Below are positions 1 through 64,000 of a stretch of 64,000 nt of DNA, piece after piece (the stretch's first letter is position 1; every line of letters starts with the position of its first letter). The notes under the pieces were generated by a model. The model was not told the DNA's origin and searched no databases. It saw only the letters and a list, made by a program, of their open reading frames with translations. The stretch lies in IMG/VR virus record IMGVR_UViG_3300009008_000002. One strand, 5' to 3'. The position numbers and the translations under genes were made by a program. This DNA is from a virus. Taxonomy: Duplodnaviria > Heunggongvirae > Uroviricota > Caudoviricetes.

Positions 1-269
1 GCCGCCACGGTATTTAGGATCTCCCAAAAAGGCGCAGGCCCACAACCTCTTAAATATTTCACCCTTGCTAATCCATTTCCACTGCGCCTCTGACAATTCC
101 TCCATGACGCGAATGGTATCTTGTGGGTTGATTTCCACGAATGAAGGAACATCAACTTTAAGATTCTGCTGATGAACAATAACGCAAAAGCCACTGTCGG
201 CCATCTCTACTTCATGTTCCGACTTGGCGGGCTTCCCATCCAAAATGGCTGTAGCGGTAATTTGAACCA

Positions 270-485
270 TTAAATACTCCCCGCAGTGATTGTCAACTCA
301 AAACTACCATCGTCTTGGCGCTCAAGGAAATAGCGACTGCCCCAAACCTGTGAGAATACTTCCATACACATTCTCTCAAACAAACTTGGGTTCATGTCGA
401 TTGCCACACGGGCCTTCGTGAGAAGCAAGTCTTTTAATTCCTGCTCACTCAATGTGTGAATTTGGTGTGCCATCATCTTCCTCAA
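270..485 (-). CDS. hypothetical protein (71 aa)
   Basis: ORF only; same strand as neighbours; no recognisable motifs. Confidence 0.3.
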   Translation of the reverse strand: MRKMMAHQIHTLSEQELKDLLLTKARVAIDMNPSLFERMCMEVFSQVWGSRYFLERQDDGSFELTITAGSI

Positions 486-620
486 GCGAATGAATTATTT
501 TCTGTGTGCAATGCTCAGCCGTTTCCTGTGCCTCTTGCCAACTAACCTGGGCTTCACACTGAATCGCTTCAATGTATTGTCGTAGCGTATCCGTCAATGC
601 AGTTAAGCATTCCTCTCGAT

Positions 621-911
621 TCATCTTAGAACCCTCGGAACATCCTCATTGGCAACCGCAGCACGATATGCATTTTCAATGAATTTATAATCCTGCTGCG
701 TGATTGTGCCATCTTTGGAATACTTCTCAATGGTTTCCTTGATTTCCGGCTGCTCAAATCGCCAGACGTTAATTTGATCTGCTTGCTCTATCGTAATGGG
801 GCGCGTATCCTGATATACAAAATAGAACACAGCAATAAGGACCGCAATAATGACAGCAATCACGGCCAGCTTCCCCAAAGTATCAAGGATTTGCGTCCGA
901 CTCATACTCAT
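621..911 (-). CDS. small membrane-anchored protein, tandem paralog A
   Basis: N-terminal hydrophobic helix; C-terminal region (QINVWxFxQPE...PRVxR) clearly paralogous to adjacent ORF 908..1246. Confidence 0.45.
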   Translation of the reverse strand: MSMSRTQILDTLGKLAVIAVIIAVLIAVFYFVYQDTRPITIEQADQINVWRFEQPEIKETIEKYSKDGTITQQDYKFIENAYRAAVANEDVPRVLR

Positions 912-1246
912 CGTATCACCCTCGGAATCTTCTCGCCAGCGAGCAAGGCCCGATAAGCGTCTTCAAGCTGATTGTATTCTTCATTGGTGATTTTGCCGTC
1001 TTTGGAAGCCTCATCAATCCTGCCTGCAAGTTCCGGTTGGTCAAACAACCAAACATTAATTTGCTCAGCCTGTTCGGGACTGATGGACTCTTGAAGTTGC
1101 TCCAACGCTTTCTGCTCTTGCTCTTTTTTCTTATCGGATTGCATCGAGGAATACGTTGTAACTGCGATAAAAAGGATCGCAATTATCAACCAGATGTAAT
1201 CTTTTATGAAGTCTAGGATTGCTTTCATTTGATGACCCCTTGCCAC
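908..1246 (-). CDS. small membrane-anchored protein, tandem paralog B
   Basis: N-terminal TM helix; shares the QINVWLFDQPE...EKIPRVIR region with 621..911; 4-nt overlap with the downstream gene. Confidence 0.45.
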   Translation of the reverse strand: MARGHQMKAILDFIKDYIWLIIAILFIAVTTYSSMQSDKKKEQEQKALEQLQESISPEQAEQINVWLFDQPELAGRIDEASKDGKITNEEYNQLEDAYRALLAGEKIPRVIR

Positions 1247-1704
1247 GTATTAAAACTATCCTCGCCAGAAGCAGCCACCCCTTCCCTCTCTCGCAACTGT
1301 TTCAGGCAATTTACAACCGAATCAGCCAAATCGTCCCGGCCCAACGATTTCAGACATTTCAACACACGAGTAATCCGTGACCAGTTACGATTGGGTTGGC
1401 TCCAGACAGCAACACGACGACTCGAAAAAGTGGATGACTTGGCAACAATCCAATTGTTGCCGAATTGCACCAAAGAAAGACCTAGAAATTCGAGAAATTT
1501 ACGCAGAGAAGTTTCAAGTCGGTCCATCAGATCAACATCATCTTGGAATTCCGCAACTTCTTCGGCAGTCAAATCAGTTGGAAACAACCACTGGATGTAA
1601 TCTTCTGTGGACTCCAACTTGGCATCATCCCAATTGTAGATAATGTCTTCCCAGTCATAGGGTTTGCCAGAGTCTTGATAAAAGTCAATCAACTCACTTG
1701 CCAT
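1225..1704 (-). CDS. hypothetical protein; weak resemblance to OGFr-N-like conserved region (YIQWLFP motif)
   Basis: ORF; motif YIQWLFPTD resembles the conserved core of the OGFr N-terminal family. Similarity judged by eye only. Confidence 0.35.
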   Translation of the reverse strand: MASELIDFYQDSGKPYDWEDIIYNWDDAKLESTEDYIQWLFPTDLTAEEVAEFQDDVDLMDRLETSLRKFLEFLGLSLVQFGNNWIVAKSSTFSSRRVAVWSQPNRNWSRITRVLKCLKSLGRDDLADSVVNCLKQLREREGVAASGEDSFNTWQGVIK

Positions 1705-1717
1705 GTCACGCTTCTCC

Positions 1718-1954
1718 TCATAGCCAAGTTTCTATGATGTTGGGATCGTCATGCTCTTGACGAGCTAGGCAGCATAAACCCGCTGGTAATTGCTCTCTGA
1801 TTTCCTCTAACGAACTCCCAGTTGCCACTACCTCACAGGGAACTACATGGGGTTCAGGTTCACCATAAGATTCAAACCGCCTACACACGAAAACACCAGG
1901 AAAATCCTTAGTCTTATCGTTAAACACAGTCCAAACGGAAAGTGATTCAGACAT
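1718..1954 (-). CDS. hypothetical protein (78 aa)
   Basis: ORF only. Confidence 0.3.
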   Translation of the reverse strand: MSESLSVWTVFNDKTKDFPGVFVCRRFESYGEPEPHVVPCEVVATGSSLEEIREQLPAGLCCLARQEHDDPNIIETWL

Positions 1955-5766: not shown

Positions 5767-7689
5767 TCATTCGCCACCCTTCGCTTCAGGGGCTTCCGTC
5801 GCTCCTGCGGGTGCCGCTTCTTTCTTTTTCGGCGTGACCCGAACCCTTGCGACCGTGCAACCCTCCAGGGAGAGATTGTGCGTATCCGCAAAGTCTTCAA
5901 GGTCGAACTTGTGGTTCAACGCCATGTGGCGATTGTAAACCGCTTCAATCGAAGCCTTAATGTCGGTCGGCAGCACACCAGTTTTGGTGTTATTTTCAAT
6001 ATCACGACGGAGCGCCAACGAAGTTGCTTCATCAATGATACCTTTGACCATACTGCCGGTCAGACAATCACCAAAGGTGAACCAGTGCTCTTCCTTGGAT
6101 GACTTGTCCGTGACCTGATAAATCTTACGACGCTTGTGGAAACAATCAGCCACAGCACGCTTGACCATCTGATCCATTTCCATATCCACAACGGGGATAC
6201 CTCGGAAATGAATATTAAAGATTTCGGTCGCGGCAACCATATTCGGTCGGGCGATTTTAATGTGCTTGTCAACACGACCCTCACGAACCACTGCCGGGTC
6301 CAACATTTTTGGACGGTTTGTAGCCAGCATCACAAGGATGTGGTTTTCAATCAGACCATCCATTTCCGACAGGAACATCGGAACGATGGTCTTGTCCACG
6401 TCGGAGCTACGGCTAGTGCCACGTTCGGACAGGATAGCTTCCGCTTCATCAATGAACAGGATGGCCGGGAAACCATGTCGCTCGTAATGCTTGCGACCAC
6501 GCATGAACAGGGCGCGAATATTCGCTTCGCTATTGCCCACATACATGTTCAGGATTTCAGGGCCTTTGCAGTAGATGAAGCCAGAAGCAATCGCCTCTTG
6601 ACCGTAAATCTGAGCAAGGCTGTAAGTGGTTGCCTTACCAACCAACGTTTTGCCACAGCCGGGAGGGCCATACAACAGCACGCCCTTCGGTGGTTGCTTG
6701 TTGTAGTGGGCAAAGGTTTCAGGGTGACGGAACGGCAATTCCACCGCCTCTTTAATTGCTTCCTTCGCCTCTTCCAGACCACCGATTTCGTTCCAGCTAA
6801 CTTGGCACTCTTGCTCCAAGCAGAAACGCTTATCTGCGGCCAAGTGACCGATAACGATCCGTTTGTGGTTATCCAAGATAACCCGGTCGCCTTCCGTCAC
6901 GGGGTTTTCGCCTTCCGGCTCGACGCCGTTATAAACCCGTTTCTTCTCGCCACCAACTTCAACCTCCATGACCGGCTCACCTTCCAGTGGGTCGGAAATC
7001 ATGCAGATCACGCCGTCTTCGGGAGTTTCGGATTTGTCGATAATTTGCTTGGACTGCAAATTAACTTTCACTTTGCTGCCGGGGCCGAGATCCATACCCG
7101 GAATGGCACCGACTTCATAGGGAGTCTCGCCAATCACCACCAAAGCGTAGATGCCGTCATCCTTGCCCAGCAATTTAACTTGGGCCGGATCTTTTTCGGG
7201 CAAACCAACCGCAAAGCAGTCCGGTGAACCGTCTTTAAAAACGACATTCACTTCGCCAGCATCACGGTCATAGGCAGTGATTTTCGCTACCTTCTCGTAG
7301 CGTGGGTGTTCCTGATCAGTCACCCAGCAAATATCCTCTACCTCGAACGCATCGGGGTTGACTTCGGTATTGCATTCGACAACGCGACCATAGACCTTGG
7401 GCGCAGCCAACACTTGTGCGAGTTGGGAGTCCAGAACAGCGATGGCACCTTGAGCCTCTTGCAAGGCTTCTACCAACTCCGCATATTCGTCAGCAGTCGG
7501 AACATGCCGTTGCCTCTCTTCACCTTCTTCCCCACCACGGGCAGGGACAGGTGGAGCCAGACCAGTGTGATGCTGCGGGGGCGCAGCAGTCTCGCCTTGC
7601 TCTTGCTCTTGCCTTTCAGCATTTTGTGCCCTCATTGCACTCAGAAAATCCGGGTGATCGGGCTGCACGCTTCTTTCGTCTTGACTCAT
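5767..7689 (-). CDS. AAA+ ATPase, proteasome-associated ATPase (ARC/Mpa/PAN)-like; N-terminal coiled coil and OB-like interdomain plus single AAA module
   Basis: Walker A GPPGCGKT, Walker B ILFIDEAEAI, second region of homology; the IGGLEEAKEAIKEAVELPFRHPE lead-in is typical of classical AAA proteins. The long N-terminal region resembles the ARC interdomain. Confidence 0.8.
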   Translation of the reverse strand: MSQDERSVQPDHPDFLSAMRAQNAERQEQEQGETAAPPQHHTGLAPPVPARGGEEGEERQRHVPTADEYAELVEALQEAQGAIAVLDSQLAQVLAAPKVYGRVVECNTEVNPDAFEVEDICWVTDQEHPRYEKVAKITAYDRDAGEVNVVFKDGSPDCFAVGLPEKDPAQVKLLGKDDGIYALVVIGETPYEVGAIPGMDLGPGSKVKVNLQSKQIIDKSETPEDGVICMISDPLEGEPVMEVEVGGEKKRVYNGVEPEGENPVTEGDRVILDNHKRIVIGHLAADKRFCLEQECQVSWNEIGGLEEAKEAIKEAVELPFRHPETFAHYNKQPPKGVLLYGPPGCGKTLVGKATTYSLAQIYGQEAIASGFIYCKGPEILNMYVGNSEANIRALFMRGRKHYERHGFPAILFIDEAEAILSERGTSRSSDVDKTIVPMFLSEMDGLIENHILVMLATNRPKMLDPAVVREGRVDKHIKIARPNMVAATEIFNIHFRGIPVVDMEMDQMVKRAVADCFHKRRKIYQVTDKSSKEEHWFTFGDCLTGSMVKGIIDEATSLALRRDIENNTKTGVLPTDIKASIEAVYNRHMALNHKFDLEDFADTHNLSLEGCTVARVRVTPKKKEAAPAGATEAPEAKGGE

Positions 7690-10469: not shown

Positions 10470-10713
10470 TTAAAAAGTCCGTAGCCACTTCGTCTGGTAT
10501 CTCTGTTTCTTTGTCTTCATGCGCCAGCGACAACTGCAAGCCTTGTATATCCTCATACAAATTGATAGTCAAGACACAGACGATTTTATATTCATCGCTG
10601 TATGCATACTCTCTCATGCAACCTGTATCAGCAATTTGCCCAGACTTCATGGGGTGTTGCCTCGCAAACACCTTCATCTCTTCCACAAGCTGTTCAATTG
10701 TGATCATGCACAT
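10342..10713 (-). CDS. hypothetical protein (123 aa)
   Basis: ORF immediately downstream of the TIR gene. Confidence 0.35.
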   Translation of the reverse strand: MCMITIEQLVEEMKVFARQHPMKSGQIADTGCMREYAYSDEYKIVCVLTINLYEDIQGLQLSLAHEDKETEIPDEVATDFLNAFFGADLVEQEKVFELPRFPIFPVQRQFVAALEGDRDNSED

Positions 10714-11759
10714 TTTAATTCTTCCCGTCTCAAGTCCCGAACCAATCGTTCAAACATCCAATTCTCTGGATAGGGTGAATCGAAATCATAAACGAAAGTC
10801 TCCAATAAATTATCCGGCACTTGATCAAGTGGCATCAAACGAATTGGAAAAAACTTTCGCTGATTTTCTCGTGCCCATTTAATTTCAGCTTTCACCCACT
10901 GGTTCTTCAAACTGAATTTAGACAAAATCACTATGAAATTATCATGCTCGGAAATGGCTTCTTCAATCTGTTCGTGCAGCTTGCTGCCGCCTCTTAAATT
11001 ATCATCAGCGAACCATACCCGAATCCCTCTTGCCTGCAAATCCAGATACACTTTGTCTGCAATAGCCTTATCTTCCCCCGCATAGCTAAGGAAACAGGAA
11101 ACATCGACTGACGGCTGTTGGTGTCCCCGTGGCGTTCTAATTTTCCCATGTCGGAGGGCATTATACTGCCCATCCGTCAAACAATGAAGATAGGTAAGTG
11201 AATCATTGCCGAAATTACCGAAACCCGGATGGCACTGACCTGATAAAATGGCTTGAAGTCCTGGCCCCAAACACCTACCGATCTCAGCTAAAAGGCGATT
11301 ATGGTCATGGAAATTAATGTCGTAATCCACAAGAGGCAAAACAAACACTGGGTCTACAACACTGGTTGCGTGTCTTAAAATTTCAATAGCTGGACGGATG
11401 TTTTGCTGCAATTCAAAATTCATCTGAGTAAGCTGCACACTTTGAGCAGCATAATCATCCAACGAATGTGCTGAGCGTGCAGGATCGTAACCTTGACACG
11501 CTGCATTTCGTTTTAAATTTTCAACAATCTCCCTTCCCTCATATTGATGCCAAGCACGCTCTCCCAAGGCAGCACGCTCCATCTGGCTAATTAAAAAAAG
11601 AAGACCGGCAGTGCTTGGAGGAACGTATGTAACTTCGTCCATCCAAATAGCACGACCTTCCAATTCGGAAGCAAGTCGCTCTAATTCGTGTTGTTTGAAT
11701 TCAAGCATCCTTCCGCCACCATCCATCTTCAGATTCGGAACGCTGTCGCTGGGCCACAT
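10704..11759 (-). CDS. TIR-domain protein (C-terminal TIR; ~230 aa N-terminal domain of unknown function)
   Basis: C-terminal VDVSCFLSYAGEDKAIADKVYLDLQARGIRVWFADDNLRGGSKLHEQIEEAISEHDNFIVILSKFSLKNQWVKAEIKWA matches the TIR boxes (FxSY, GEDxR, RGI..F.DD, I..AI..S...IVILS, W...E), including the conserved glutamate. Confidence 0.8.
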   Translation of the reverse strand: MWPSDSVPNLKMDGGGRMLEFKQHELERLASELEGRAIWMDEVTYVPPSTAGLLFLISQMERAALGERAWHQYEGREIVENLKRNAACQGYDPARSAHSLDDYAAQSVQLTQMNFELQQNIRPAIEILRHATSVVDPVFVLPLVDYDINFHDHNRLLAEIGRCLGPGLQAILSGQCHPGFGNFGNDSLTYLHCLTDGQYNALRHGKIRTPRGHQQPSVDVSCFLSYAGEDKAIADKVYLDLQARGIRVWFADDNLRGGSKLHEQIEEAISEHDNFIVILSKFSLKNQWVKAEIKWARENQRKFFPIRLMPLDQVPDNLLETFVYDFDSPYPENWMFERLVRDLRREELKCA

Positions 11760-13483: not shown

Positions 13484-13496
13484 GGCATCCTAGTAG

Positions 13497-45315: not shown

Positions 45316-45322
45316 GGGGGAA

Positions 45323-46702: not shown

Positions 46703-46703
46703 T

Positions 46704-52687: not shown

Positions 52688-53459
52688 AACCTACAATCGC
52701 CTCAAATATTTAAAACAATGCATAGAATCCTGGGAAAGAACACATAACCCAAAACACCAATGGACACTCATAGCTTGTGACGATGGCTCAAATGATGGGA
52801 CTAAAAAATATCTAAAATCACATGGATTCAAAATATTTAAGCACAACCGGCGAGGGGTTCACCATCAAACAAACACAATTATAAAACACTGCTCTAAAAT
52901 AGACTTTGACATAACCTTCAAGACAGATGACGACATAACATTTAAACAGAAAACATGGGACGATAGGTATATTGAAGCCATTACAGAGACCGGATGTGAT
53001 CATCTGAATTTCCACGATTTAAAATGGAAACGAAAGAAACACAAACGAGCTACAATAAGTCACCCATCTGCGTTGATAGAAAACAAAGCGGTGAATAGTG
53101 ACACACAAGGAGCTTGTTGGACATTCACACCCCAAGTTATTGAAAAAGTAGGGTATTTTGATTTGCAAAAATTTGGGGCGTGTGGATTCGGGCATCGTGA
53201 CTACACATTTAGATGCTGTAGGGCCGGTTTTAATGTGTTGGATTCCATATATGACATCAAAGACAGCAATAAATATCTGGGATTAATCAAAAAGGATTAC
53301 CAATCGGCATCTGAGGATTATTTTAAAATATGGAATGAGAATTTCAAAACATGGAATATACGCGAAAAAAAAGCATTACTTCGCACTAATAGAGTGTATG
53401 TTCCATACAACACAATTCATTACAATATTCTAGGACAGCCATTATACAGACTTTTCTGA
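52665..53459 (+). CDS. family 2 glycosyltransferase
   Basis: IIWAITTYNR…LIACDDGSNDGT (canonical GT2 DDGSxDGT). Confidence 0.6.
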   Translation: MKIIWAITTYNRLKYLKQCIESWERTHNPKHQWTLIACDDGSNDGTKKYLKSHGFKIFKHNRRGVHHQTNTIIKHCSKIDFDITFKTDDDITFKQKTWDDRYIEAITETGCDHLNFHDLKWKRKKHKRATISHPSALIENKAVNSDTQGACWTFTPQVIEKVGYFDLQKFGACGFGHRDYTFRCCRAGFNVLDSIYDIKDSNKYLGLIKKDYQSASEDYFKIWNENFKTWNIREKKALLRTNRVYVPYNTIHYNILGQPLYRLF

Positions 53460-53936
53460 AGCCTTATCCTTATCAGATACAACAATAGGATCAACAGGCC
53501 ACTCAATACCGAAACTGGTATAGTGGTAATTTTTATCTTGCCCTGGCTTCCAAATATCCCCTTGTAGATACAACAAAATGGTATCATCAACATTAGAATA
53601 AAACCCATGCGCACAATTTGATGGTATGAAAAGATGCTCTGCCTCTTCACCTGATAACCATGTGCCAAACCATTGTTTGTAAGTTTTAGAATCTTCTCTT
53701 AAGTCCACGACCACATCATAAAGACGACCCTTCAAACACTGAACAAATTTAGAATAAGGCGAACAATGCAATCCCCTAATAACCCCTTTTCCAGAAACCG
53801 AATAACTGGTTTGTTTAAAATCACAATGATAATCACCATCTTGTATGTAAATGGTCTGGAAATAACCTCTATCGTCCGCAAATCTATTCCCAGAAAATAA
53901 AAAACAACCCTCAAATAATGTCTTCTTAAGTTCCAT
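53442..53936 (-). CDS. dTDP-4-dehydrorhamnose 3,5-epimerase (RmlC)-like cupin sugar epimerase; start trimmed to MELKK
   Basis: FADDRGYF…GVIRGLH…KFVQCLKGRLYDVVVDLR…IPSNCAHGF matches RmlC family conserved blocks. Confidence 0.7.
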   Translation of the reverse strand: MELKKTLFEGCFLFSGNRFADDRGYFQTIYIQDGDYHCDFKQTSYSVSGKGVIRGLHCSPYSKFVQCLKGRLYDVVVDLREDSKTYKQWFGTWLSGEEAEHLFIPSNCAHGFYSNVDDTILLYLQGDIWKPGQDKNYHYTSFGIEWPVDPIVVSDKDKASEKSV

Positions 53937-53970
53937 TCTTTCTCTCCTTTCCAACACTATATAAAATACT

Positions 53971-54162
53971 ATGGAAAAAATCAAGACGTTCAAAGAATGG
54001 CTAGAACTAAAAGAGGGCCTGTGGTTAAATGATAGCAATTCCGAACCTAATGGCACGGCTGTCAATGATGACAGAAAAAGCGGCTGGATGAAAGCCAAAG
54101 CTGGAGGAGGTATGGCGGCGGCTGGAGGATTCGGAAACATGGCTCTTGGAGGTCGTAGGTGA
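53971..54162 (+). CDS. hypothetical Gly-rich small protein
   Basis: ORF; GTGA overlap with the next ORF. Confidence 0.3.
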   Translation: MEKIKTFKEWLELKEGLWLNDSNSEPNGTAVNDDRKSGWMKAKAGGGMAAAGGFGNMALGGRR

Positions 54163-54722
54163 ACTTCAAACTCTGGTTAGAAAGCCAATATAAATTCAAT
54201 ATGAAACGCCTCCCGCTAATCCTACAAGGATTAGCGGCTGAAGCCGTCAAAGCAGGCTCGTTTACTGAATTTAAAAAGGATTTCACGCTTCAAATCAAGC
54301 ATGGCCTCTACTGGCACTGGACCGATGATATTTATTTTAAAATTGATTCTGAGCGGGGTCCAAGGGATATGTCCAGTTTGGCAGCAGGTGGAATGGATGA
54401 GGGGAAATTGATGATTACCTCAGACATTGATGCCTGGGCAAATTACGGCACTAGACCGTATGCTGCACTGATTGATATGACAGAAGTTCCCAGAAATGGC
54501 TATCGACAAGTCAATCGAGGATTTGGGAATGAATTTTTTGTAAGCGATCCTAGTAAAGCCAAAGTCCTTGAAGTTTTACCACGAAAACAAGCCTTTGCAA
54601 AAGACCGGCAACAACGCTCGCTTCTATCAAAAGCCATCAACAGCAATGAAGATTTAGAAGCATTTTATGACGCTGTTAATGGGTTTCACCAAGAGAGACA
54701 ATTAGACAGCCCTCTTAATTAA
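54159..54722 (+). CDS. hypothetical protein (187 aa)
   Basis: ORF (GTG start). Confidence 0.4.
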   Translation: MNFKLWLESQYKFNMKRLPLILQGLAAEAVKAGSFTEFKKDFTLQIKHGLYWHWTDDIYFKIDSERGPRDMSSLAAGGMDEGKLMITSDIDAWANYGTRPYAALIDMTEVPRNGYRQVNRGFGNEFFVSDPSKAKVLEVLPRKQAFAKDRQQRSLLSKAINSNEDLEAFYDAVNGFHQERQLDSPLN

Positions 54723-57418
54723 TCATCTTCCGAATCATCAATCTTAATGTATTCATCTTTGGCTCGTGTGTCTCTCACATAACCAATGCGTCTTTCGGTT
54801 AGATGATCCGCCTCTAATTTGGTTCTGGGGTGTGGATATAAACTAGGAGTAATCTCAATCAATCGCTCAAACTCCAGACCTTTTGATTTGTGTGCAGTAG
54901 TCAAAATCACTGGGTTTTCTTCTTCCATTTTCTTCTTATGTGCCCGCTCTTGTGCTGGACTCATATCCTCAGGAACGCCACCCAATCTACGATATAACCA
55001 ATTCTTAAATTCCTTGACTGTTATTTCCACTCTACTGGCGTATGTCTGGTCTCCATCCTCGCCCTTCTTCTCATCCATTAGAACTTCTGCGGAGGCTACT
55101 AGGGCTTTCTGTGCCTCTAGTAAATCTTTGAGTTGACCTTGTTTACGAACCTTTCCGCCCCAATCTTCCTTTTTAGCTTCACAGAAGTCATTTAATTCAT
55201 CTAAGAAGTCTTCTATGTCGCTATCATCATCAACTCTCTTGTAACCACCCCATGCTATGACCCTATTAATAGTGGCCAACACATCCCTGGCTAAGTCTTT
55301 GCCATAAATCACAAATGGAATCTTGTGTTTCAGCAATTCCATTGCTGCCTTGGCCAACGGTTCATTGGTCCTAGCAATAATGGCAGTTTCTTTCTTCATC
55401 TCGCCCATGACTCGCATTTCGGTCCCTAGACGATCCATTACGTCATCATATTTAAACTCACTATCAGAAATGTAGGCGGGATCATCTGGGTCATCTGCCA
55501 CTCCCGCTTGTAAATTACTTACCACACCTTGTCGATTGGAATAATCTATGATACCGGGTTTTGAACGGAAGTTTCTAGTAAGGGTTTGTTCAGCAGCACC
55601 AGGGGTAGCAGATGCGCTCGTCAACATAGTGGTAATATCTCTGAAAGAATTATCATCTGCGCCTCTAAACCTATACATGCCTTGATTGGGGTCGCCAACA
55701 GCAACTATTCTCGCTCCAGCTTCTACCAATTTTTGCAGCAGAACTTTTTGTGCAATATTAAAGTCTTGGACTTCATCTACAAGCACGAATCTGTATTTTT
55801 GTGGCTTAGTCCAATCTAATTCAGCAGCGTGTCTAGCAGCATACCAAAGATCGTCATCAAAATCCCTCAGTCCCTTCAAGTTATGCTCAACAGGCGTATG
55901 TCTACCCTGTGCATCCGTTATTCTTCTCCACTCTTTCCTACCGCCACCAACATCTTGCTCTTCATGGGTCTGCATCCACTTTTGATCAATACCATGAGGC
56001 TTAGACACTTTCAGAACCCACGCAGCCGCTTTTATCATTCTCGGCAAAAACGCTCCAGTTTCGCAATCACGAAGAAAATCATCTACCCCCATAGCATGGG
56101 AAATTTCTTCATTTTTAAAATCAGCTTTAGGATCTTCTTCTAACTGCTCTTTTACCCTCTCCAGTTCCCAATTAATATCATAATTTGGTTCATCTAATTC
56201 CCCAAGCAACTCTGCAATGTCTTTTTCAGGATTATCAGGATCTAAATTGTAAGCCTTCGCCAAACCAATGATTTTCTCAACTTCCCTATTAAACTCTCTC
56301 CAAATTTTCTTCATGTAAGATTTGGTGTATTTGCCGCATCGAGGGGAATCAAAATGCACAACATTCACACTTTCCAACATGTTTTTATATTGTCCACCGT
56401 CTAAAATCTCTGCTGCTTTAGTGCCTTTCTCTGAATACTTGGCAAACCTTTGCGTCGAGGGAACAGGCCCCTCATTCTCCCCAGTTGAACGATTCTTTTT
56501 GCCATTAGCATCTAAAACTTCACCAGCATAACTGTGAGTAGTGTATACATCTACCCATTTGGGGAAAGACTTCTTCGCTTGCTTCCTGTTTTCCCTACCA
56601 AATACTAAATACAACCACTCATTTTTGCCTCTGGCTTTCTTGCCGAATTTCTCAGCAAGATATTTTAACATAAATGTCTTGCCCGTTCCTGCTAATGCGT
56701 TAATAACCAAATGATCAACTGAGTCGTTGGTGGCAATGTCTCCAAATCTGGCTTCAATAGCCCTCTGCTCGTCCGTTAGTTCCTCTTTTTTATCTTTTTG
56801 CGTCCAAGTAGCCTTAGCTAAATCACTAGCTTTGGCACCTTTGACCATTTTCCCATTCTCTTCCACCCTTTGAAATCTACCTGCTAATTCAGCTTGGGGC
56901 ATGTGAGCATTAAACCACTGCAACTTGCCCTTCCAAATGGTAGCGTATGCCCAAGTGCCATCCCCATTATTTTTAAGAGCTACGTGTTGACCCTGCCTGA
57001 TTTTATGATCAACACCCGTGTGATCGGGGAGAACTTCATCTTGTTTGGCAGTAGCCAAAAACCACGGCTTAACCTGTGCTTGTTGGCCTCTGGAAGAATG
57101 GGAGCCTCTTTGTGTTCGTTGCGTCTGTGCTTGCTGTGTCTGTGCGGCTGTCTGCCCCTGTCTGCTAATTGGACTATCAGGAACCTCTAAAGCAGAAATA
57201 GTCTCAGAACCACCAGGGCCTTTCCTCCAATAAATCCACTCTTTATCGCCAAAAGTGGACTGCATGTAGCGATAACCTTGGCCCACTAAGGTTTGGTGCG
57301 TAGCACCAGGAGGCGCTGGAATCTTTGCCATTTCAAACAACGCCTTCTCTTGAAGGTTAAACCAATCTTTAAAATCAACGTCTGCTTGGTATGGTGGTAG
57401 AAATTCTATGTCAAACAC
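54719..57418 (-). CDS. UvrD/PcrA/Rep-like superfamily 1 DNA helicase with long N-terminal extension
   Basis: Motif I INALAGTGKTF, motif II LVDEVQDFN, motif III GDPNQ, motif IV TRNFRSKP, motif VI TTAHKSKGLEFERLI. Confidence 0.8.
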   Translation of the reverse strand: MFDIEFLPPYQADVDFKDWFNLQEKALFEMAKIPAPPGATHQTLVGQGYRYMQSTFGDKEWIYWRKGPGGSETISALEVPDSPISRQGQTAAQTQQAQTQRTQRGSHSSRGQQAQVKPWFLATAKQDEVLPDHTGVDHKIRQGQHVALKNNGDGTWAYATIWKGKLQWFNAHMPQAELAGRFQRVEENGKMVKGAKASDLAKATWTQKDKKEELTDEQRAIEARFGDIATNDSVDHLVINALAGTGKTFMLKYLAEKFGKKARGKNEWLYLVFGRENRKQAKKSFPKWVDVYTTHSYAGEVLDANGKKNRSTGENEGPVPSTQRFAKYSEKGTKAAEILDGGQYKNMLESVNVVHFDSPRCGKYTKSYMKKIWREFNREVEKIIGLAKAYNLDPDNPEKDIAELLGELDEPNYDINWELERVKEQLEEDPKADFKNEEISHAMGVDDFLRDCETGAFLPRMIKAAAWVLKVSKPHGIDQKWMQTHEEQDVGGGRKEWRRITDAQGRHTPVEHNLKGLRDFDDDLWYAARHAAELDWTKPQKYRFVLVDEVQDFNIAQKVLLQKLVEAGARIVAVGDPNQGMYRFRGADDNSFRDITTMLTSASATPGAAEQTLTRNFRSKPGIIDYSNRQGVVSNLQAGVADDPDDPAYISDSEFKYDDVMDRLGTEMRVMGEMKKETAIIARTNEPLAKAAMELLKHKIPFVIYGKDLARDVLATINRVIAWGGYKRVDDDSDIEDFLDELNDFCEAKKEDWGGKVRKQGQLKDLLEAQKALVASAEVLMDEKKGEDGDQTYASRVEITVKEFKNWLYRRLGGVPEDMSPAQERAHKKKMEEENPVILTTAHKSKGLEFERLIEITPSLYPHPRTKLEADHLTERRIGYVRDTRAKDEYIKIDDSEDD

Positions 57419-57535: not shown

Positions 57536-59281
57536 TTACTTAGTAACCGAAACTGGCTGTGCAACAGGAGCCGGTTTCGGAGTCGGAGTCGGTTTCTTCG
57601 GAGCTACGGCCTTTGGAGCCGCACGAACGGGAATCGTGGGTGTTGCGCTTTTCAGATCCGTCCAGAGGGTTCCTTCGCCAGCGTAGAGCAATTGAAGGTC
57701 AATATCCTCTGGCAACCCTTCAGCGAACTGCCATTTCGTATACGCCGTGCTGTCACCAAACGCCTGAACAGCGAGACGGAATTTATCAGCCTGTGCTTCT
57801 GCTTGCACTTTTTCAGCAGTAGCCTCAGCTTCACCAAGGGTTCGGGTGATTTCCGCCTGAATTTCGGCAACCTGCTTTTGAATAGCGGCTACCTGCTTGT
57901 CCGTTTCGGCGTCAATTTCCTTACCTTGCTTCTCACCTTCTCGCTTTTTCTCTGCAACCAATTTCTTGGTATCTTCGGTGACTTTATCCGATTCCAGCTT
58001 CACCTGTTGCTCAGCTTCCCGAAGGTTAGCTTCGATCTTGGCGGTGTCACCTTCAACTTTTCTGGTGAGTTTTAATTCCTCGGCAACATAGCCCTTTTGA
58101 ATAGGCTCACGAATGTCCTTCGGAATATAAATGTGCCTCACCAGGGCGTAGAGAAGCGTCAGATTTTTACCAGGAACCTCAATCTCTTCGCTGATTTCCT
58201 TGATAGTTCCATCTTCCTGCTTCTTCTTCAACACTTTCGTCATCGAACCACCTTCAAGCACCAGCTTGAATTCTTTGGTGGTCTGCTCTTGGAAAGCCGT
58301 TCGTGTGATGCCTTCCAATAGTTCCGTCGCCTCTAATTTAGAACCATTGTTACGGCTGATCGACTCACTTTGCGGGATGATAACCTTATCTCGCACGGCA
58401 TCCACATTACCGAACGTCCGCACTACATCTGGGGCTTGGTCTGGCATGACGCCCCAAATACTTGTGAAGTCCATCACGATTTTACGACCATCATCAGACG
58501 GGAAGTTAATACCAGTCCCAGGAACCGGCTGTGCCTCTCCACTTTCATCCTTCACGATCTTGCCGTTCTCGTCGTGAACAACGTCTGCGATGATACTGGT
58601 TTCCGTATAACCGATTTCGACAACATCAACCTGTGCTTCTCTCGGATTGATTGGATACAGACCCGGAGGCAACACGTCGTCGTGGGTGCCAGCAGCGATG
58701 CTAGACGCTTTATCAGCCGTCAAATAAGTCACAACACCAACATAACCAGCAGGGATTTTGACCCACCCGGAATGTTTAATTTGCGTTGCGCCTTCTCGAC
58801 CAACCGAATCTTGCTGCTCTTGGATGATTTTAAACTCGTAGGCGTAGGGATGGGCACGATAGCGGCCTGGACCGAAGCATTTTCGGAGAATACCCTTGTG
58901 CTGCGCTGTGTCCAAATCACCATCGACCAAGAATTCACCCTTGGGCAACTCATTTCCCAACTTGCTGGTGCAAATACCAACATTGCCCGGCTCAATCACC
59001 ACATCTGGAACGATGTTGCGCTCGTAGTAAATCGGGTTATAAAAGTGGCGACCGGGACCACGCAAATCCCGAAGAACACCAACTTCACCCTCTTCCGCAA
59101 AGTGACCGGCTTTGGCATATTTCAAGCCAACCCGGAAGATCAGTGGCCCTTTCCATCGTAGCTGCAAGCTAGACCCTTCAGGGACATAGACTCGGCAGAT
59201 TCCCCATTGAAAGGCTTCGTAGGCAAGGAAGCACAGGAACAGAGCAGCAACGGCACCAACACCAATTCTCAAGTTTCTCAT
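57536..59281 (-). CDS. SPFH/band-7 (flotillin/prohibitin-like) domain protein with long coiled-coil and Pro/Ala-rich tail
   Basis: N-terminal TM, SPFH-like core, then charged coiled coil (…AEIQAEITRTLGEAEATAEKVQAEAQADKFRL…) typical of flotillin-like proteins. Confidence 0.6.
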   Translation of the reverse strand: MRNLRIGVGAVAALFLCFLAYEAFQWGICRVYVPEGSSLQLRWKGPLIFRVGLKYAKAGHFAEEGEVGVLRDLRGPGRHFYNPIYYERNIVPDVVIEPGNVGICTSKLGNELPKGEFLVDGDLDTAQHKGILRKCFGPGRYRAHPYAYEFKIIQEQQDSVGREGATQIKHSGWVKIPAGYVGVVTYLTADKASSIAAGTHDDVLPPGLYPINPREAQVDVVEIGYTETSIIADVVHDENGKIVKDESGEAQPVPGTGINFPSDDGRKIVMDFTSIWGVMPDQAPDVVRTFGNVDAVRDKVIIPQSESISRNNGSKLEATELLEGITRTAFQEQTTKEFKLVLEGGSMTKVLKKKQEDGTIKEISEEIEVPGKNLTLLYALVRHIYIPKDIREPIQKGYVAEELKLTRKVEGDTAKIEANLREAEQQVKLESDKVTEDTKKLVAEKKREGEKQGKEIDAETDKQVAAIQKQVAEIQAEITRTLGEAEATAEKVQAEAQADKFRLAVQAFGDSTAYTKWQFAEGLPEDIDLQLLYAGEGTLWTDLKSATPTIPVRAAPKAVAPKKPTPTPKPAPVAQPVSVTK

Positions 59282-59316
59282 TTATGAATCTCCTATTCGG
59301 ACGGTTCGGTTTCTAG

Positions 59317-60966
59317 TTAGTTGGCGGGTTTCTCAGCAGGAACAGGCTTAGGAGCGGGCTTCTTTTCAGGAGCCTTCTCGACGGGCTTAGTCGTCGTCGT
59401 GCCATCCTCTTTGACTTCCGCAACGGCAGGGGGCTTGTAACCCTCAGTCTGCTCTGAGAATTCCTTGAAAACAGCAACCACCGGGCTATCAGCCGTATTT
59501 ACCATCATCTTCTGGTAGGCGGGAGCCATCTTCTTAAGGAACGTCCAGCGAGCAAACTCGTCACCGTTTCCACCAAAGGCATCAACGGAATTCTTCCAGC
59601 CAGCAGCTTCGGCTTCGTTGTTAAAACCGATAACATCAGCAGCCGCTTGTCCCTTGGCGATTGTTGCAGAAGCCTTGTCTTTCGCTGCTTCTAGCTCCAA
59701 CTTGGCGACTTCAAGTTCCTGATTGGCTTGAAGTAGTGCCAATTCCTGATTTTTATTCGCCTCGGTAACAATTACGACCACTTCTTGCTCTGCCTCAACC
59801 AACTCTTGCTTTTGCAGCACCATAGCCTTCTCGATGGCCAGGGTTTTCTCAGAGTCTTGCTGGTCAATTTCTTTCACATACTGAGCGGCTTCCTGAACAG
59901 CAAGTTGCCGATCTCGAATAGGCTCAGCAATTTTTTCGGGCGGATTGATTTTCGTAATCAACGCCTGAATGATTTCGATACCTTGTTTGGCACACGTCGC
60001 CTGTAGGTCTCTCTGGAATTCATTCTGGAAAGCAACACGGGTTTCACCGCTAATAAATTCCCGGCCAGAGTGGCTAGAACCTTCAAGTCGAACGAAACTA
60101 CGTGCGTTCGGCAAGATAATCTTTGAAATAATCTCTTCGTCAATCGCATCGCCGTTATCGGTATCGTTGTAGATAACGTAAACCTCGGACGCTTTTTCAG
60201 GCATCACGCGAAATTCGATGATACCCTGCAAACTAACCCAGAAACCGTCGATAGTCGGAAATCCCAACTCTTCCTCGCCTAGCTGAGCGAGATTAAACCT
60301 CTGAGAACGGCAGTCAACAAGGTTGATGTTGGTCACAAAGGGATTGACGTAGTAAGTGCTGGGTGCAAGCGTAGGATTTTGAACGCCTCGCTTTTTATCT
60401 TCCACCAACAGAACATTGGTGTCATCGGGAAGCGGCGCGGATAGCTCGGTGACGATACCTTTAAAACCGGCTGGAATCGTGATCGGGTCGTATAGCAAGA
60501 TATGCTCGGCGTAGCTGTCGCCATCTTCTCTCGGTGGAGCGCCTTCCAACTTAGCATTGATGGCATAACGACCAGGACGAAGCACTTCGGGCACGATACC
60601 TTTCTGGTTTTCCTCCCAAGCAATCAAGTCTCTGGGAGGCAAATCATCACCATACAGCCTCACCCGAACACCCAACTTGCCTTCAGGAATCTCAATCTGC
60701 GGAACTACAGTCCAGTCCCAAGAGTAGGGATTGTAGAAATAACGGCCTTCCGCAAGCACCTTCTTTTGCACCCCCTTGTAACTTTCGTCAGGTGCAATTT
60801 CTGCATCCGTGGGCATGTCATTCCCAGTCTTCTTGATCATAATCACCATCTGCTTTGTCGGGCATTCAATCCGACATTGCGTGTAGACGAAAAACGGTGT
60901 CACAATCAACAAAATAAGGGCCACACACCCCCCAACCAACCATTTCAGTCCTGCATCAGATCCCAT
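59317..60966 (-). CDS. SPFH/band-7 flotillin-like protein (paralog of upstream gene)
   Basis: N-terminal TM; EA-rich coiled coil …QELALLQANQELEVAKLELEAAKDKASATIAKGQAAAD… as in FloA/YqiK-type flotillins. Confidence 0.65.
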   Translation of the reverse strand: MGSDAGLKWLVGGCVALILLIVTPFFVYTQCRIECPTKQMVIMIKKTGNDMPTDAEIAPDESYKGVQKKVLAEGRYFYNPYSWDWTVVPQIEIPEGKLGVRVRLYGDDLPPRDLIAWEENQKGIVPEVLRPGRYAINAKLEGAPPREDGDSYAEHILLYDPITIPAGFKGIVTELSAPLPDDTNVLLVEDKKRGVQNPTLAPSTYYVNPFVTNINLVDCRSQRFNLAQLGEEELGFPTIDGFWVSLQGIIEFRVMPEKASEVYVIYNDTDNGDAIDEEIISKIILPNARSFVRLEGSSHSGREFISGETRVAFQNEFQRDLQATCAKQGIEIIQALITKINPPEKIAEPIRDRQLAVQEAAQYVKEIDQQDSEKTLAIEKAMVLQKQELVEAEQEVVVIVTEANKNQELALLQANQELEVAKLELEAAKDKASATIAKGQAAADVIGFNNEAEAAGWKNSVDAFGGNGDEFARWTFLKKMAPAYQKMMVNTADSPVVAVFKEFSEQTEGYKPPAVAEVKEDGTTTTKPVEKAPEKKPAPKPVPAEKPAN

Positions 60967-61055: not shown

Positions 61056-61895
61056 TCAAATAGAAAATGTGACAAGTTCCGGCAACATGACGACTGAGAG
61101 TTTACCACCTAACCCAGCCCCCGTATCTACCATGATCCTACCATGTCTAGGGTTGTTCACGGATTTCACAACCAGAACATCAGGCACATTCAAGTGACCT
61201 GAAACTACAATTTTGGGATAATTGACGACTCGATAAGGAATATTAAATGAATGAAGCCAAGGATTTCTGTATATATTGTCACGATTTCTGAGAACTTTAA
61301 GCTGATCAGGAATCGTGGGCCAATTTTGCAAACCATTCTCTTTAGGCATACCAATACACTGCTGCGGTTCATGGTTGCTAGGCCAAACAGTCTGATCAGG
61401 AACCAATCCCGAATGCACAAAAATATAATCAGGATGCTCGACACACCACGGCATCATATTGATGAACTTTTTGTGATGAAACGGCACCCGGTTCATTAAA
61501 GAAAACCAATCCATGTGATTGCATCCGTAGGACGAAAAAGTGTATCTGGAATACTTGTGCGTGGCCCAAGTGTCTCTTACCCTAGCCTTACGCCCCAAAT
61601 AATCAATGGCACCTATGGCCACACCAAAACCTAAATCGTGATTTCCCAAACACGCAGTACACTTGTGCTTCTCAGTCAACTCGATAACGGTTTCAATCGT
61701 CTCTTTTTGCTTCCTGCCATAATGATCAACAATGTCGCCCAAAAAAACAATCCACCTATCTTCGGTTAGATAGCCTTCTTTCTTTATCTTATTTAAAAGA
61801 TAATCAAGACGATCCTTCTCGCCATGAACATCTCCAAAAACAGCTACCGGGCCGTAAATCCTTTGAGGTAGGGTGTTGTTAAAGTGGTGGATCAT
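61056..61895 (-). CDS. calcineurin-like metallophosphoesterase, lambda-phosphatase/PPP-family-like
   Basis: GDVHG, GDIVDHYG, GNHD motifs in canonical order. Confidence 0.75.
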   Translation of the reverse strand: MIHHFNNTLPQRIYGPVAVFGDVHGEKDRLDYLLNKIKKEGYLTEDRWIVFLGDIVDHYGRKQKETIETVIELTEKHKCTACLGNHDLGFGVAIGAIDYLGRKARVRDTWATHKYSRYTFSSYGCNHMDWFSLMNRVPFHHKKFINMMPWCVEHPDYIFVHSGLVPDQTVWPSNHEPQQCIGMPKENGLQNWPTIPDQLKVLRNRDNIYRNPWLHSFNIPYRVVNYPKIVVSGHLNVPDVLVVKSVNNPRHGRIMVDTGAGLGGKLSVVMLPELVTFSI

Positions 61896-61962
61896 ATCAG
61901 TATAAATGAGAACATAAATGTTTTTTTTAAGTTATTTTGGTGTTGACTCCGATACATAAAAT

Positions 61963-62616
61963 ATGAAGAAAAAATGTTCAAAATGCCAGGAAAACAAAGA
62001 CTCGGAAGCCTTCACAAAAAGATCATCATCCAAAGATGGATTACACCCGTGGTGTAGAAGTTGTGTCCAAGATTACAATAAAAACCATCACAAGAGAAAC
62101 AAAAAATCTGCTAATGTAAGAAATAAAAAATGGCGAGAAAACAATGTAGAATACAACAAAGAAAGAAATAGAAAATGGATGGTAGAAAATGCAGAATACC
62201 GTCAAGAGTATAAAAAACGGCACAGAAAAGAAAATAGAGAAAAAATAAATTCATACAAAAGACAAAGAAGACTAGAGTTGTCCCAAGACCCACTATTCCG
62301 ACTTGAGACCAACCTTAGAAAAAGACTTTATAGAGCTATTAAAAAAATAGAGGGAAACGCTCTTGAAAACAAAAGCATCTCCCTCGAAAGCAGCAATTTA
62401 CTTGGTTGTTCTATTCAGGATTTACAAAAACACCTTGAAAAGCAATTCACCAAAGAAATGAGTTGGAACAATTATGGACAATGGCACGTAGACCATATTC
62501 GTCCAGTTTCCAGTTTTGATCTAACTGACAAATCTCAAGTTCAAGAATGTTTTCATTATGCAAATTTACAACCTTTATGGGCCAAAGATAACTACAAGAA
62601 GGGTTCATCATATTAA
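61963..62616 (+). CDS. HNH endonuclease with N-terminal Cys4 zinc finger and basic repeat region
   Basis: C-terminal GQWHVDHIRPVS…NLQPLWAKDN (HNH: H-N-H with DH and N..N). N-terminal CSKC…CRSC. Repeated NKKWRENNVEYNKERNRKW-like basic units. Confidence 0.75.
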   Translation: MKKKCSKCQENKDSEAFTKRSSSKDGLHPWCRSCVQDYNKNHHKRNKKSANVRNKKWRENNVEYNKERNRKWMVENAEYRQEYKKRHRKENREKINSYKRQRRLELSQDPLFRLETNLRKRLYRAIKKIEGNALENKSISLESSNLLGCSIQDLQKHLEKQFTKEMSWNNYGQWHVDHIRPVSSFDLTDKSQVQECFHYANLQPLWAKDNYKKGSSY

Positions 62617-63377
62617 TAAGCCCAACTTGCCTTTCTCAATCACATCCCTTACCTTCGTAGTTTTCTTGCCTGTGCGGTGATCTACCGCTCGACTCTGGAT
62701 GTAATTGTAAGTGCGAATCTTGTCTGAACCGCTACCATCACCTATTTGCTCTTTACGACGCCGATCATAATCCTTCTGATCTTGTTTCGATTTCATTTTT
62801 GAAACCTTTACAGAAAGAATACGATGCGCCTCACGTCGGTTTTGGTGTTGATTGCGACCATCAATCACAACTTGCATGTTGGTTGGTCGATGAATCATCC
62901 TCACACAAGATTCTGTACGATTGCGATGTTGTCCTCCAGGCCCTTGACCTACTGCTGTTTTAACTTCTAATTCGCTTTCTGGCAATAATTTAACCTCACG
63001 CTTTGAAGGCATAGGCAAAACTGCCACCATAACAAAAGAAGTCTGGCGGCGTCCTTTACTCTCCGTAGGTGGGACTCGCTGAATGCAATGCACACCAGCC
63101 TCTTGGCTAAACAGAGTCGCAGCTTTTTGACCAGAAATGCGGGATGTTACTTCACCCTTGACTGAATCAAGGATTTCAACTTTTAGGCCATTAGATTTGG
63201 CAAACTTAACATAAGCTGCAAAAAGATCATGGACGAATAATTTAGAATCTTCGCCCCCTTTGCCAGCATGGACCTCTAGGATGATCTCATTAGACTGGCT
63301 AAAGACACCCCCATCCCTTCAACGTGTTCTGTGTGTTTTGCGCATTGTTAAAGATACCTCCGATTTCTTTTACCCAT
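62608..63377 (-). CDS. class I peptide chain release factor homolog (RF1-like PxT/GGQ) lacking domain 1; frame assembled via two putative +1 frameshifts (at 63351..63348 and 63302..63299)
   Basis: Contiguous frame 63301..62608 encodes LEVHAGKGGEDSKLF…IQRVPPTESKGRRQTS…GQGPGGQHRN…DKIRTYNY…DHRTGK (RF domains 2-4). No in-frame start codon exists upstream of domain 2 in that frame. An upstream SD+ATG mini-ORF (63377) and two CUU-stop-C shift sites connect the frames. Confidence 0.55.
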
Positions 63378-63570
63378 TTTCTTGTCCTCCATATTGATAA
63401 AGTAATTCTTCGACGGTAATGGGTTTACCGTCTCGGTCAAACACTAAAACATTGTCTGGTTGTCTAGTATCTATCGCCACACTCAGTCTTTTGCACCTGT
63501 TGTTGCGCAGCCAACTCCAATCTTCGTCACGGAGTTTGATCAGATACTCAATCAGGCTATCAACGTCCAT
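63370..63570 (-). CDS. hypothetical protein (66 aa)
   Basis: ORF; 3' end overlaps the SD/mini-ORF of the RF gene. Confidence 0.3.
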   Translation of the reverse strand: MDVDSLIEYLIKLRDEDWSWLRNNRCKRLSVAIDTRQPDNVLVFDRDGKPITVEELLYQYGGQENG

Positions 63571-63594
63571 TGTGGCATTCTACCACAAATTGGC

Positions 63595-63981
63595 TCATTG
63601 TGAAGCCTCTGGCGGCATATCTGGCGGTAATTCCTGTGGCAAAGTCTCTCGTTGCGGCTTAGCTGGGGGCTGAACCCCAATTTTAGGAAGCACGGTGAAA
63701 ATCACAACAGACCGTTTCGAGTGTGGATTATTAAAATGAAGCGGTGACGGTTCCCACTGGAAGAACCACGAATTTCGCTCATAATTATCACGAGGAATGT
63801 AAACTTCGTAGCCTGCTGGGCCTTTTTTACACCACATCACTCGATATTCGTCATCTCCCACGGGCGTCTCTATTCTACGAGAAACATCTAGCCACAGTTT
63901 TCTATCCAAATCAACGCTGAGGGCTGTTTTAGCAATCCAACAACCTTCGCCTTCTCTCAAATCCACGATCCTTTTTGGCAT
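63595..63981 (-). CDS. hypothetical protein (128 aa)
   Basis: ORF. Confidence 0.35.
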   Translation of the reverse strand: MPKRIVDLREGEGCWIAKTALSVDLDRKLWLDVSRRIETPVGDDEYRVMWCKKGPAGYEVYIPRDNYERNSWFFQWEPSPLHFNNPHSKRSVVIFTVLPKIGVQPPAKPQRETLPQELPPDMPPEASQ

Positions 63982-64000
63982 AAATCGAGCTTCCCCAGCT

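Follow-up and report, generated by a model that had tools for sequence, protein, structure and literature searches.

The 64,000-nucleotide stretch of DNA whose first lines are given above (hereafter the window, positions 1 to 64000) very probably derives from a huge, uncultured tailed phage, of whose genome it would be a non-structural segment with genes for host takeover, translation, RNA repair and glycan synthesis. Near its right end, on the minus strand, lies a release-factor (RF) gene (62608..63377) that is RF1-like, lacks domain 1 and has a conceptual product of 255 amino acids for which two +1 frameshifts are needed. A preliminary description of the window had listed an element-encoded release factor; the factor is indeed present, the plain open reading frame (ORF) covers no more than its C-terminal two thirds, and the gene starts at 63377. 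This plain ORF, 62608-63093, matches positions 175-339 of the 355 positions of phrog_19918. Upstream of it, in the same frame, are about 75 codons of conserved RF domain 2 (NEIILEVHAGKGGEDSKLF...), a stretch that holds no ATG, GTG or TTG and is preceded by an in-frame stop. Further upstream is a leader ORF of nine codons in a frame that we call A (63348..63377, minus strand; ATG GGT AAA AGA AAT CGG AGG TAT CTT TAA, MGKRNRRYL*), whose ATG at 63377 follows GGAGGA at a distance of 7 nt and which overlaps the stop codon of the gene upstream. The leader ends in frameshift site 1 (63347..63361, minus strand; GGAGG TAT CTT TAA C). After a +1 shift at this site, translation would enter a frame of 16 codons, ending TGG GGG TGT CTT TAG C, that runs into frameshift site 2 (63298..63312, minus strand; GGGGG TGT CTT TAG C), and the +1 frame after site 2 reads SQSNEIILEVHAGKGGEDSKLF..., the start of RF domain 2. 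Both sites have the anatomy of the bacterial prfB site, namely a Shine-Dalgarno (SD)-like element, a 3-nt spacer, the slippery CTT_T, a stop and a C. The release-factor sequence is identical in five assemblies, and therefore the frame breaks are not an assembly error. Read in this way, the gene appears to be readable only through two prfB-style +1 frameshifts, and we infer that ribosomes do shift by +1 at these sites.

The predicted protein carries the decoding motif PxT (QRVPPTES), which is of RF1 type, and the catalytic motif GGQ (GPGGQH). On the NCBIfam models it scored 220 bits for RF1 against 158 for RF2, with only profile positions 103-332 of 347 being aligned, and the RF1 models beat the RF2 model by 60-80 bits in all five members of the family that were tested. 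The equivalog model of the full four-domain prfA has a cut-off of 400 bits, which the 220 bits do not reach, and domain 1 is absent. By these profiles the factor of the window is RF1-like and is not fileable as a prfA equivalog.

With the RF body as query, 125 relatives were retrieved from IMG/VR, of which 80 loci were kept, compared to a single locus in GTDB; the truncated RF family is essentially viral. The ten closest loci, representing eight distinct sequences, lie on viral contigs of 50-340 kb, and each one has a short leader with SD and ATG that ends at (C/G)TT-T-stop. Considering also the window and LR756511.1, an unannotated genome of 595,163 bp from an uncultured phage, a body-proximal site is found in ten distinct genomes, and the GGEDSKLF codons follow it after 46-52 nt (after 37 nt in locus L046). 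The site reads CTT-T-stop-C in nine of the ten and GTT TGA A in L046, and its stop is TGA in six genomes (L046 and five that have CTT), TAG in three and TAA in one. Two sites are present in three genomes, those of the window, LR756511.1 and L040/L041. The SD-like element is clear in L045 and at site 1 of LR756511.1, and weak or absent in L039, L044 and L048. All members from the ten genomes carry the RF1-type PPT as well as GGQ, and their match begins at about profile position 100, so that domain 1 is missing throughout. As for the deviating locus (L046:2940-3010), its leader MKNTVLV* ends at GTT TGA A and the RF body is nevertheless reached in the +1 frame, which makes a variant slippery site possible.

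In the other 70 of the 80 IMG/VR loci the gene begins at domain 2 itself (MKRVIEIRAAEGGEDSKLF...), without leader or frameshift site. They resemble the factor of the window in the truncated RF1-like body (36-40% identity), in GGEDSKLF and GGQ, and in being almost exclusively viral. In 68 of the 80 (L051-L118) an in-frame TGA occupies the conserved Trp codon of RF1, 24 codons past GGEDSKLF, and judging from this position these loci probably represent truncated RF1 genes from phages in which TGA is read as Trp. In the window all three stops serve as stops (55 TAA, 46 TGA and 24 TAG). An alternative genetic code was considered for the window and ruled out, since all three stops are used and the ORFs of table 11, the standard bacterial code (89 in a greedy set), cover about 92% of it. 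Two further loci, L049 and L050, show an in-frame TAG six codons after the position of the conserved Trp codon.

Among the alternatives weighed in this work, the one that survives best concerns this gene, which could be a pseudogene, or could encode without any frameshifting a GGQ-domain protein of 161 amino acids initiated at the internal GTG at 63093. Indeed, gene callers give only an ORF of 161 or 140 amino acids, and the 161-amino-acid ORF alone still has PxT and GGQ. However, the approximately 75 codons before the GTG encode conserved RF domain 2 in all relatives, and the interrupting stops always fall within a (C/G)TT-T-stop-(C/A) heptamer and in the required frame. Moreover, the leader with its SD and ATG ends exactly at the site in ten distinct genomes that have diverged to 43-59% identity, whereas the motif frequency of 1.8e-4 per base predicts by chance only about 0.004 sites in the right frame per 60-nt region. 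We thus consider decay or internal initiation unlikely, although of all the alternatives it deserves the most weight.

Frameshifting in prfB is the textbook case of autoregulatory recoding, and the site of E. coli reads AGGGGG TAT CTT TGA C. The gene of the window shares with bacterial prfB a short leader ORF (about 10-27 codons), an SD-like element placed 3 nt before CTT, the CTT_T itself, a stop followed by C and a +1 product, and its site 1 even has the same TAT spacer as E. coli. It departs from bacterial prfB in that the protein is RF1-like (PxT, better scores on prfA models) and lacks domain 1, while the phage sites as a group depart in that the stop may be TAG, TAA or TGA, that sites occur in tandem in three genomes and that the SD-like element is missing in several. 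In a survey of 12,753 bacterial genomes, the prfB motif was present in 64%, its premature stop was TGA in 98.6% and TAA in 1.4% of cases and never TAG, and no credible programmed frameshift was found in prfA (Prince et al., 2025, PMC12421855). Our full-text literature search, whose coverage was incomplete, returned no description of frameshifting in phage release factors. From their anatomy, the phage sites would work by a prfB-like mechanism. They are not prfB by membership, given that the protein is RF1-like, truncated and viral, that the stop varies and that the device can be doubled. The recoding device as such is known, and its version in the phage release factor is new.

We hypothesize that the release factor is made only when ribosomes shift by +1 at two successive CUU-stop-C sites, as in bacterial prfB, and that its synthesis would in this way be coupled to poor reading of stop codons in the infected cell. 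In the window itself the two stops, TAA and TAG, both fit an RF1-type factor, and simple self-regulation fits as well. The relatives speak against so simple a scheme. An RF1-type factor should not read TGA, and this is the stop at the body-proximal site of six of the ten genomes despite the RF1-type PPT of their products; simple autoregulation by the phage factor fits these genomes poorly and is therefore not the whole story. The reading that we prefer, which is unproven, is that the sites may sense termination capacity as a whole, and that a second site multiplies the response. On balance, we find it somewhat probable that prfB-like +1 frameshifting is the only route by which one lineage of huge phages expresses its RF1-type factor without domain 1, with tandem sites in three genomes. 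This would be the first such case in an RF1-type gene and the first with the RF1-specific UAG in the motif, and two sites that differ in their stop codon could form a steep, two-input sensor of termination. If this is true, synthesis of the phage factor would begin only once termination by the host fails or is being turned off. By its sequence, the family departs from two rules of the bacterial survey, namely that the device belongs to RF2 only and never uses TAG (PMC12421855), and it duplicates the device. It would thus allow one to ask in a natural setting whether the motif responds to its cognate factor or to termination capacity at large, and it could help to explain why phages with the standard code carry their own truncated release factor.

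As stated in the preliminary description, coding in the window is biased to the minus strand and tightly packed: in the greedy ORF set 46.5 kb are coded on the minus and 12.6 kb on the plus strand, in agreement with the gene calls of identical public contigs, the gap is 20 nt or less in 39 of 66 same-strand neighbour pairs, and among these pairs there are seven overlaps of 4 nt and three of 1 nt. An SD-like motif occurs at -16 to -5 in 41 of 87 genes (47%), against a background of 11%. Genes led by Shine-Dalgarno motifs and translationally coupled are what is expected of an element with a bacterial host, and these motifs, the 1- and 4-nt overlaps and the bacterial-type factors therefore indicate such a host. 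The GC content is about 45% across the window, except for 35-40% between approximately 36 and 54 kb, and the GC skew is negative over its whole length. The proportion of ORFs without motifs is as large as was claimed, since 43 of the 70 ORFs scanned (61%) have no Pfam family above the curated cut-off; this illustrates how little of a huge-phage genome can be assigned. Matches to PHROG families are spread over the window and its flanks.

By looking up exact protein matches, we found contigs from several independently assembled metagenomes that are 100% identical with the window: scaffold_384 of ENA ERZ23498639 (105,618 bp), Ga0105000_1001413 of the Joint Genome Institute (JGI) set 3300007511 (52,974 bp), scaffold_3089 of ERZ23498660 (39,663 bp) and contigs in the Logan assemblies of SRR8062320 and SRR8062321. 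Walking along contigs added 4.9 kb on the right and, via scaffold_384 and Ga0105000_1004658, 38.4 kb on the left, which gives 107,343 bp of continuous sequence with neither end of the genome reached. A contig of 193,439 bp with four of the flank proteins is listed in a protein index. A JGI metagenome scan gave no match, and megablast of positions 1-50000 of the window against 50,697 phage records gave only a 60-nt tRNA match. In more than one sample the assembly breaks at about 60940-60975, scaffold_384 ending near 60940 and scaffold_81064 starting at 60974; the breakpoint is inside the gene 59317-60966 for an SPFH-domain protein and suggests strain variation or a repeat there. The right flank, beyond window position 64000, ends in a fragment of a glutamyl-tRNA synthetase (GluRS)-like gene that is cut by the contig end (L010:3-617; phrog_35649, 7e-32). 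The left flank (L034 and L037, 9-38 kb past window position 1) contains ORFans and auxiliary genes typical of very large phages, such as those for CoaB-like (DFP) and CoaC-like (Flavoprotein) proteins, an M23 peptidase, a radical-SAM protein, a NUDIX protein, the adenylosuccinate synthetase PurA, DnaJ, the nicotinamide phosphoribosyltransferase NAMPT, a sigma-factor-like protein, an RNA-polymerase alpha-CTD-like protein and a clamp-loader-like AAA+ protein (46% identical to its counterpart in LR756511.1).

The strongest link to a known phage is provided by LR756511.1, which was found by tblastn with ClpX and then with eleven concatenated ORFs. Homologues with 25-75% amino-acid identity were found there for 22 of the 148 ORFs of the extended sequence. 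Twelve of the 22 shared genes are perfectly collinear (Spearman -1.0) and keep the same relative orientation throughout a block of about 55 kb, which spans 29-86 kb of the extended sequence and runs from 205 down to 151 kb of LR756511.1. The anchors include ORFans besides widespread enzymes, and window genes within approximately 1.2-39.7 kb belong to them. The genes found in identical order in both genomes are those for the OGFr_N, ClpX, CsrA, kinase/SLOG, ParB and ligase-like proteins, two from the edge of the glycan island described below, a sigma-factor-like and a clamp-loader-like gene and ORFans; the two genomes are also alike in strand bias and in having a doubly frameshifted, domain-1-less release factor. 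They differ in GC content (about 45% in the window vs 42% in LR756511.1) and in the stop of the second frameshift site (TAG vs TGA), and LR756511.1 has no counterpart of the TIR gene, of RtcB, of the SPFH pair or of most ORFans, nor of the 18-kb low-GC glycan island with the exception of 37947-39722.

LR756511.1 has verified virion genes. Large minus-strand ORFs at 500-582 kb of this genome were identified in a PHROG scan (E 1e-31 to 5e-81) as a major head protein (phrog_138, 5e-81), a portal (1e-72), a large terminase (1e-41), a baseplate wedge and tail proteins, and the major capsid protein (MCP) carries the Gp23 domain PF07068. A regular expression for the Walker A motif of T4-type terminases had no match in this genome, the large terminase being found by the PHROG scan instead. 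The Gp23-type capsid gene lies at 523509-524981 on the minus strand (L025:23509-24981). Over 7,800 homologues were counted in its family at E<=1e-30, on contigs of up to 673 kb, and identity is 78% or higher for the best 120; one homologue was deposited in a 'Candidatus Thorarchaeota' metagenome-assembled genome, presumably mis-binned. A search with this MCP did not link a capsid gene to the samples of the window, the family being too large and conserved. Conserved gene order, over 12 anchors, with a genome whose virion genes are verified speaks for placing the window within the Caudoviricetes.

Within the window itself, the only virion-type candidates are a pair of tandem paralogues of 135 and 138 amino acids (19981..20837, minus strand; 19981-20388 and 20421-20837), 41% identical to each other. 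The pair matches phrog_240, 'head protein', at E 1.6e-6. An AlphaFold2 (AF2) model, with a confidence score (pLDDT) of 95, was matched by Foldseek to chains of the Bas63 connector, the Sf14 neck and the tail fibre of phage 7-7-1, at template-modelling (TM) scores of 0.54-0.68, and it also resembles predicted minor tail and tail-collar proteins of Caudovirales. As the protein of 19981-20388 gave no significant match in phmmer against PDB sequences or in tblastn against phages, only profile and fold were informative; the model is suggestive of a fold like that of phage neck or tail-collar-fibre proteins. These are candidates and not hallmark genes. It had been claimed that no structural genes are recognisable in the window, and this holds for hallmark genes but has to be modified for this pair. 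A protein of 190 amino acids in the right flank (L010:3343-3915; phrog_8123, 1.6e-21) resembles the pair by eye.

Taking these results together, we conclude with considerable confidence that the window comes from a non-structural region in the genome of a very large tailed phage, as yet uncultured, with a bacterial host, as its preliminary, jumbo-phage-like reading had proposed. By the sequences compared, this phage is a distant relative of LR756511.1; the window adds one new, divergent lineage to the huge phages and as such is ordinary. Huge phages of more than 200 kb are known to carry many translation genes (tRNAs, aminoacyl-tRNA synthetases, release factors), metabolic genes that augment the host and mostly genes of unknown function (Al-Shayeb et al., 2020, PMC7162821), and the window resembles them in all these respects, a likeness that comes from the gene content of 107,343 bp without terminase or capsid. 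Its genes, mostly in one direction and tightly packed, would serve host takeover and maintenance, with sets for translation (tRNA, release factor and, just past the window, the GluRS fragment), protein handling (ClpX, an AAA+ ATPase and, in the flank, DnaJ), RNA repair and turnover (RtcB, the kinase/SLOG protein, NYN, CsrA) and DNA handling (ParB, UvrD, the ligase-like protein), to which an acquired low-GC cassette of sugar-nucleotide and glycosyltransferase genes and two selfish endonucleases would have been added. Three observations weigh against this conclusion. Capsid, portal and terminase families are absent from the 107 kb according to Pfam annotations and PHROGs; two ORFan proteins used to search IMG/VR did not retrieve the contig, so that the pipeline had not called it viral; and the closest verified phage shares only about 15% of the ORFs. 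The preliminary description had advised looking for capsid, portal and terminase beyond the window, and none came to light in the 107 kb, while all three are present in the collinear LR756511.1. There the virion genes lie approximately 300 kb or more away from the shared block, and therefore their absence from 107 kb is expected and is not evidence against a phage. We infer that the corresponding genes of the phage of the window are to be expected elsewhere in its genome.

The same absence of hallmark virion genes, the two protein probes by which the contig is missing from IMG/VR, and a lone tRNA beside a long run of accessory genes, which is also typical of islands, would suit a genomic island or a degraded prophage in a bacterial chromosome. 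Core chromosomal synteny in the flanks had been named as the finding that would speak for a chromosome, but no ribosomal-protein, rRNA or other housekeeping operon, and no core gene, occurs in the 4.9 kb on the right or the 38.4 kb on the left. In addition, the genome that is collinear over 55 kb is that of a free phage with its own capsid, portal and terminase, the conserved ORFan 37947-38744 has no relative in 185,579 GTDB species (one genome each), and 61% of the ORFs lack a Pfam family. An island or prophage is thus improbable enough to be given little weight. Slightly less probable still is a megaplasmid or other non-viral giant extrachromosomal element, in which ParB would be a partition protein. 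This possibility is related to the 'mobile accessory genome' that had been offered as an alternative to a phage. A ParB-like gene is certainly present, with weak matches on cyanobacterial and other plasmids, but a search with 11 window ORFs against 72,556 plasmids yielded matches, weak ones, to the N-terminal domain of ParB only, which does not sustain that alternative. Moreover, no relaxase, type IV secretion system (T4SS) or Rep family, by which a plasmid is recognised, appeared in any Pfam or PHROG scan; the pair of ParB and ligase-like genes is itself syntenic with phage LR756511.1; and the tandem pair 19981-20837 has a neck- or tail-fibre-like fold. Finally, a giant virus of eukaryotes (nucleocytoplasmic large DNA virus, NCLDV), which the eukaryote-flavoured Pfam domains (OGFr_N, Fringe-like, a PLOD-like glycosyltransferase, Nucleotid_trans) and an own set of glycosylation genes might evoke, is very unlikely and the least probable of all in view of the SD-like motifs at 47% of starts, the 1- and 4-nt overlaps typical of translational coupling, the bacterial-type ClpX, CsrA, RF1-like factor and sigma-factor-like genes, the prfB-type frameshift with its SD-like stimulator and the synteny with a T4-type phage (Gp23 MCP, baseplate wedge).

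The segment of low GC content (35-40%) corresponds to an 18-kb island of glycan and sugar-nucleotide genes on 35703..54140, which also holds methyltransferases and two radical-SAM genes. Its genes encode two GT2 glycosyltransferases, a Fringe-like protein, a Nucleotid_trans protein, a UDP-galactopyranose mutase, NeuB, a cytidylyltransferase and an RmlC-like epimerase, at least five of the genes being glycosyltransferase-like. Glycan enzymes without export machinery had been reported, and Pfam scans of this region (35.7-54.1 kb) agree in that no flippase, polymerase or ABC exporter family was matched. Only two island genes, 37947-38744 and 38808-39722, have syntenic homologues in LR756511.1. 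The island is otherwise absent from that genome and low in GC, and therefore it looks horizontally acquired, as far as can be judged from composition and gene content. Inside the island lies a LAGLIDADG_2 homing endonuclease (36994-37950; Pfam E 1.2e-20), the first of the two homing endonucleases that had been noticed. The second is a free-standing endonuclease of HNH/endonuclease VII type (61963..62616, plus strand; phrog_1035, 1.7e-19), which converges on the 3' end of the release-factor gene. The radical-SAM genes form a pair (49748-51249) whose paralogy is backed by Pfam only. Several tandem pairs had been noticed, and sequence comparison confirmed as such 621-911 and 908-1246, the pair 19981-20837 and the SPFH pair.

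The remaining genes named in the preliminary description were confirmed by a Pfam scan of 70 ORFs, to which PHROGs added the HNH endonuclease and CsrA. The ClpX-like unfoldase (18175..19482, minus strand) is 54% identical to the syntenic gene of LR756511.1 and is an orphan as described, since no ClpP family was found among annotations or scans of the 107 kb. The CsrA-like RNA-binding regulator (25494..25685, plus strand) is 75% identical to its syntenic counterpart. An RNA-repair-type cluster (26662..29576, minus strand) comprises an RtcB ligase (26662-28104, minus), a Prok-E2_D protein and a P-loop kinase (AAA_33) fused to a cpYpsA SLOG domain (28566-29576, minus; syntenic with LR756511.1), so that RNA-repair enzymes are present as stated. 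It is followed by the ParB-like protein and the adjacent ATP-dependent-ligase-like protein (30287..32236, minus; Pfam and PHROG), adjacent in LR756511.1 too, the ligase-like protein also matching four other uncultured-phage records of 634-735 kb. Also on the minus strand, Pfam identified the OGFr_N-domain protein (1225..1704; syntenic with LR756511.1), an AAA+ ATPase of 640 amino acids (5767..7689), the TIR-domain protein (10704..11759), an NYN-domain ribonuclease (33261..34076), a UvrD-type helicase (54719..57418), the paralogue pair of SPFH/Band-7 membrane-scaffold proteins (57536..60966; 57536-59281 and 59317-60966; Pfam and PHROG) and the calcineurin-like (lambda-type) metallophosphatase (61056..61895).

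The isolated tRNA is likewise real. It has the anticodon CAT, lies at 13496..13571 on the minus strand and is the only well-supported one in the window (ARAGORN; Rfam 72 bits). It is not of the initiator type, as position 1:72 is paired and the three G:C pairs of the initiator anticodon stem are missing, and it could be a Met or an Ile2 tRNA. It carries C4:G69 and C5:G68, which we take to be identity elements of tRNA-Ile2 (lysidine), and by these bases it may decode AUA rather than AUG. A second ARAGORN call, a 'tRNA-Trp' of 90 nt at 34346-34435, proved to be a false positive, having no Rfam match at E up to 0.5; it sits in, and on the opposite strand to, an ORF of up to 241 amino acids on the plus strand (34007-34732) that fills an apparent 700-nt gap in minus-strand coding. 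This ORF was left out of the greedy set because its longest start overlaps the NYN gene by 70 nt.

Some minor observations concern individual proteins. The N-terminal half of the AAA+ ATPase 5767-7689 has no Pfam match and by eye recalls proteasomal ATPases. The Prok-E2_D protein (28109-28624), which is ubiquitin-conjugating-like, adjoins RtcB at about 20 kb from this ATPase, and together with the ATPase and ClpX it would make a theme of protein tagging or unfolding possible. Lastly, the ORFan 25758-26498 (phrog_8582) shows about 32% identity (E down to 4e-15) to hypothetical proteins of many phages of Microbacterium, Gordonia and Mycobacterium.

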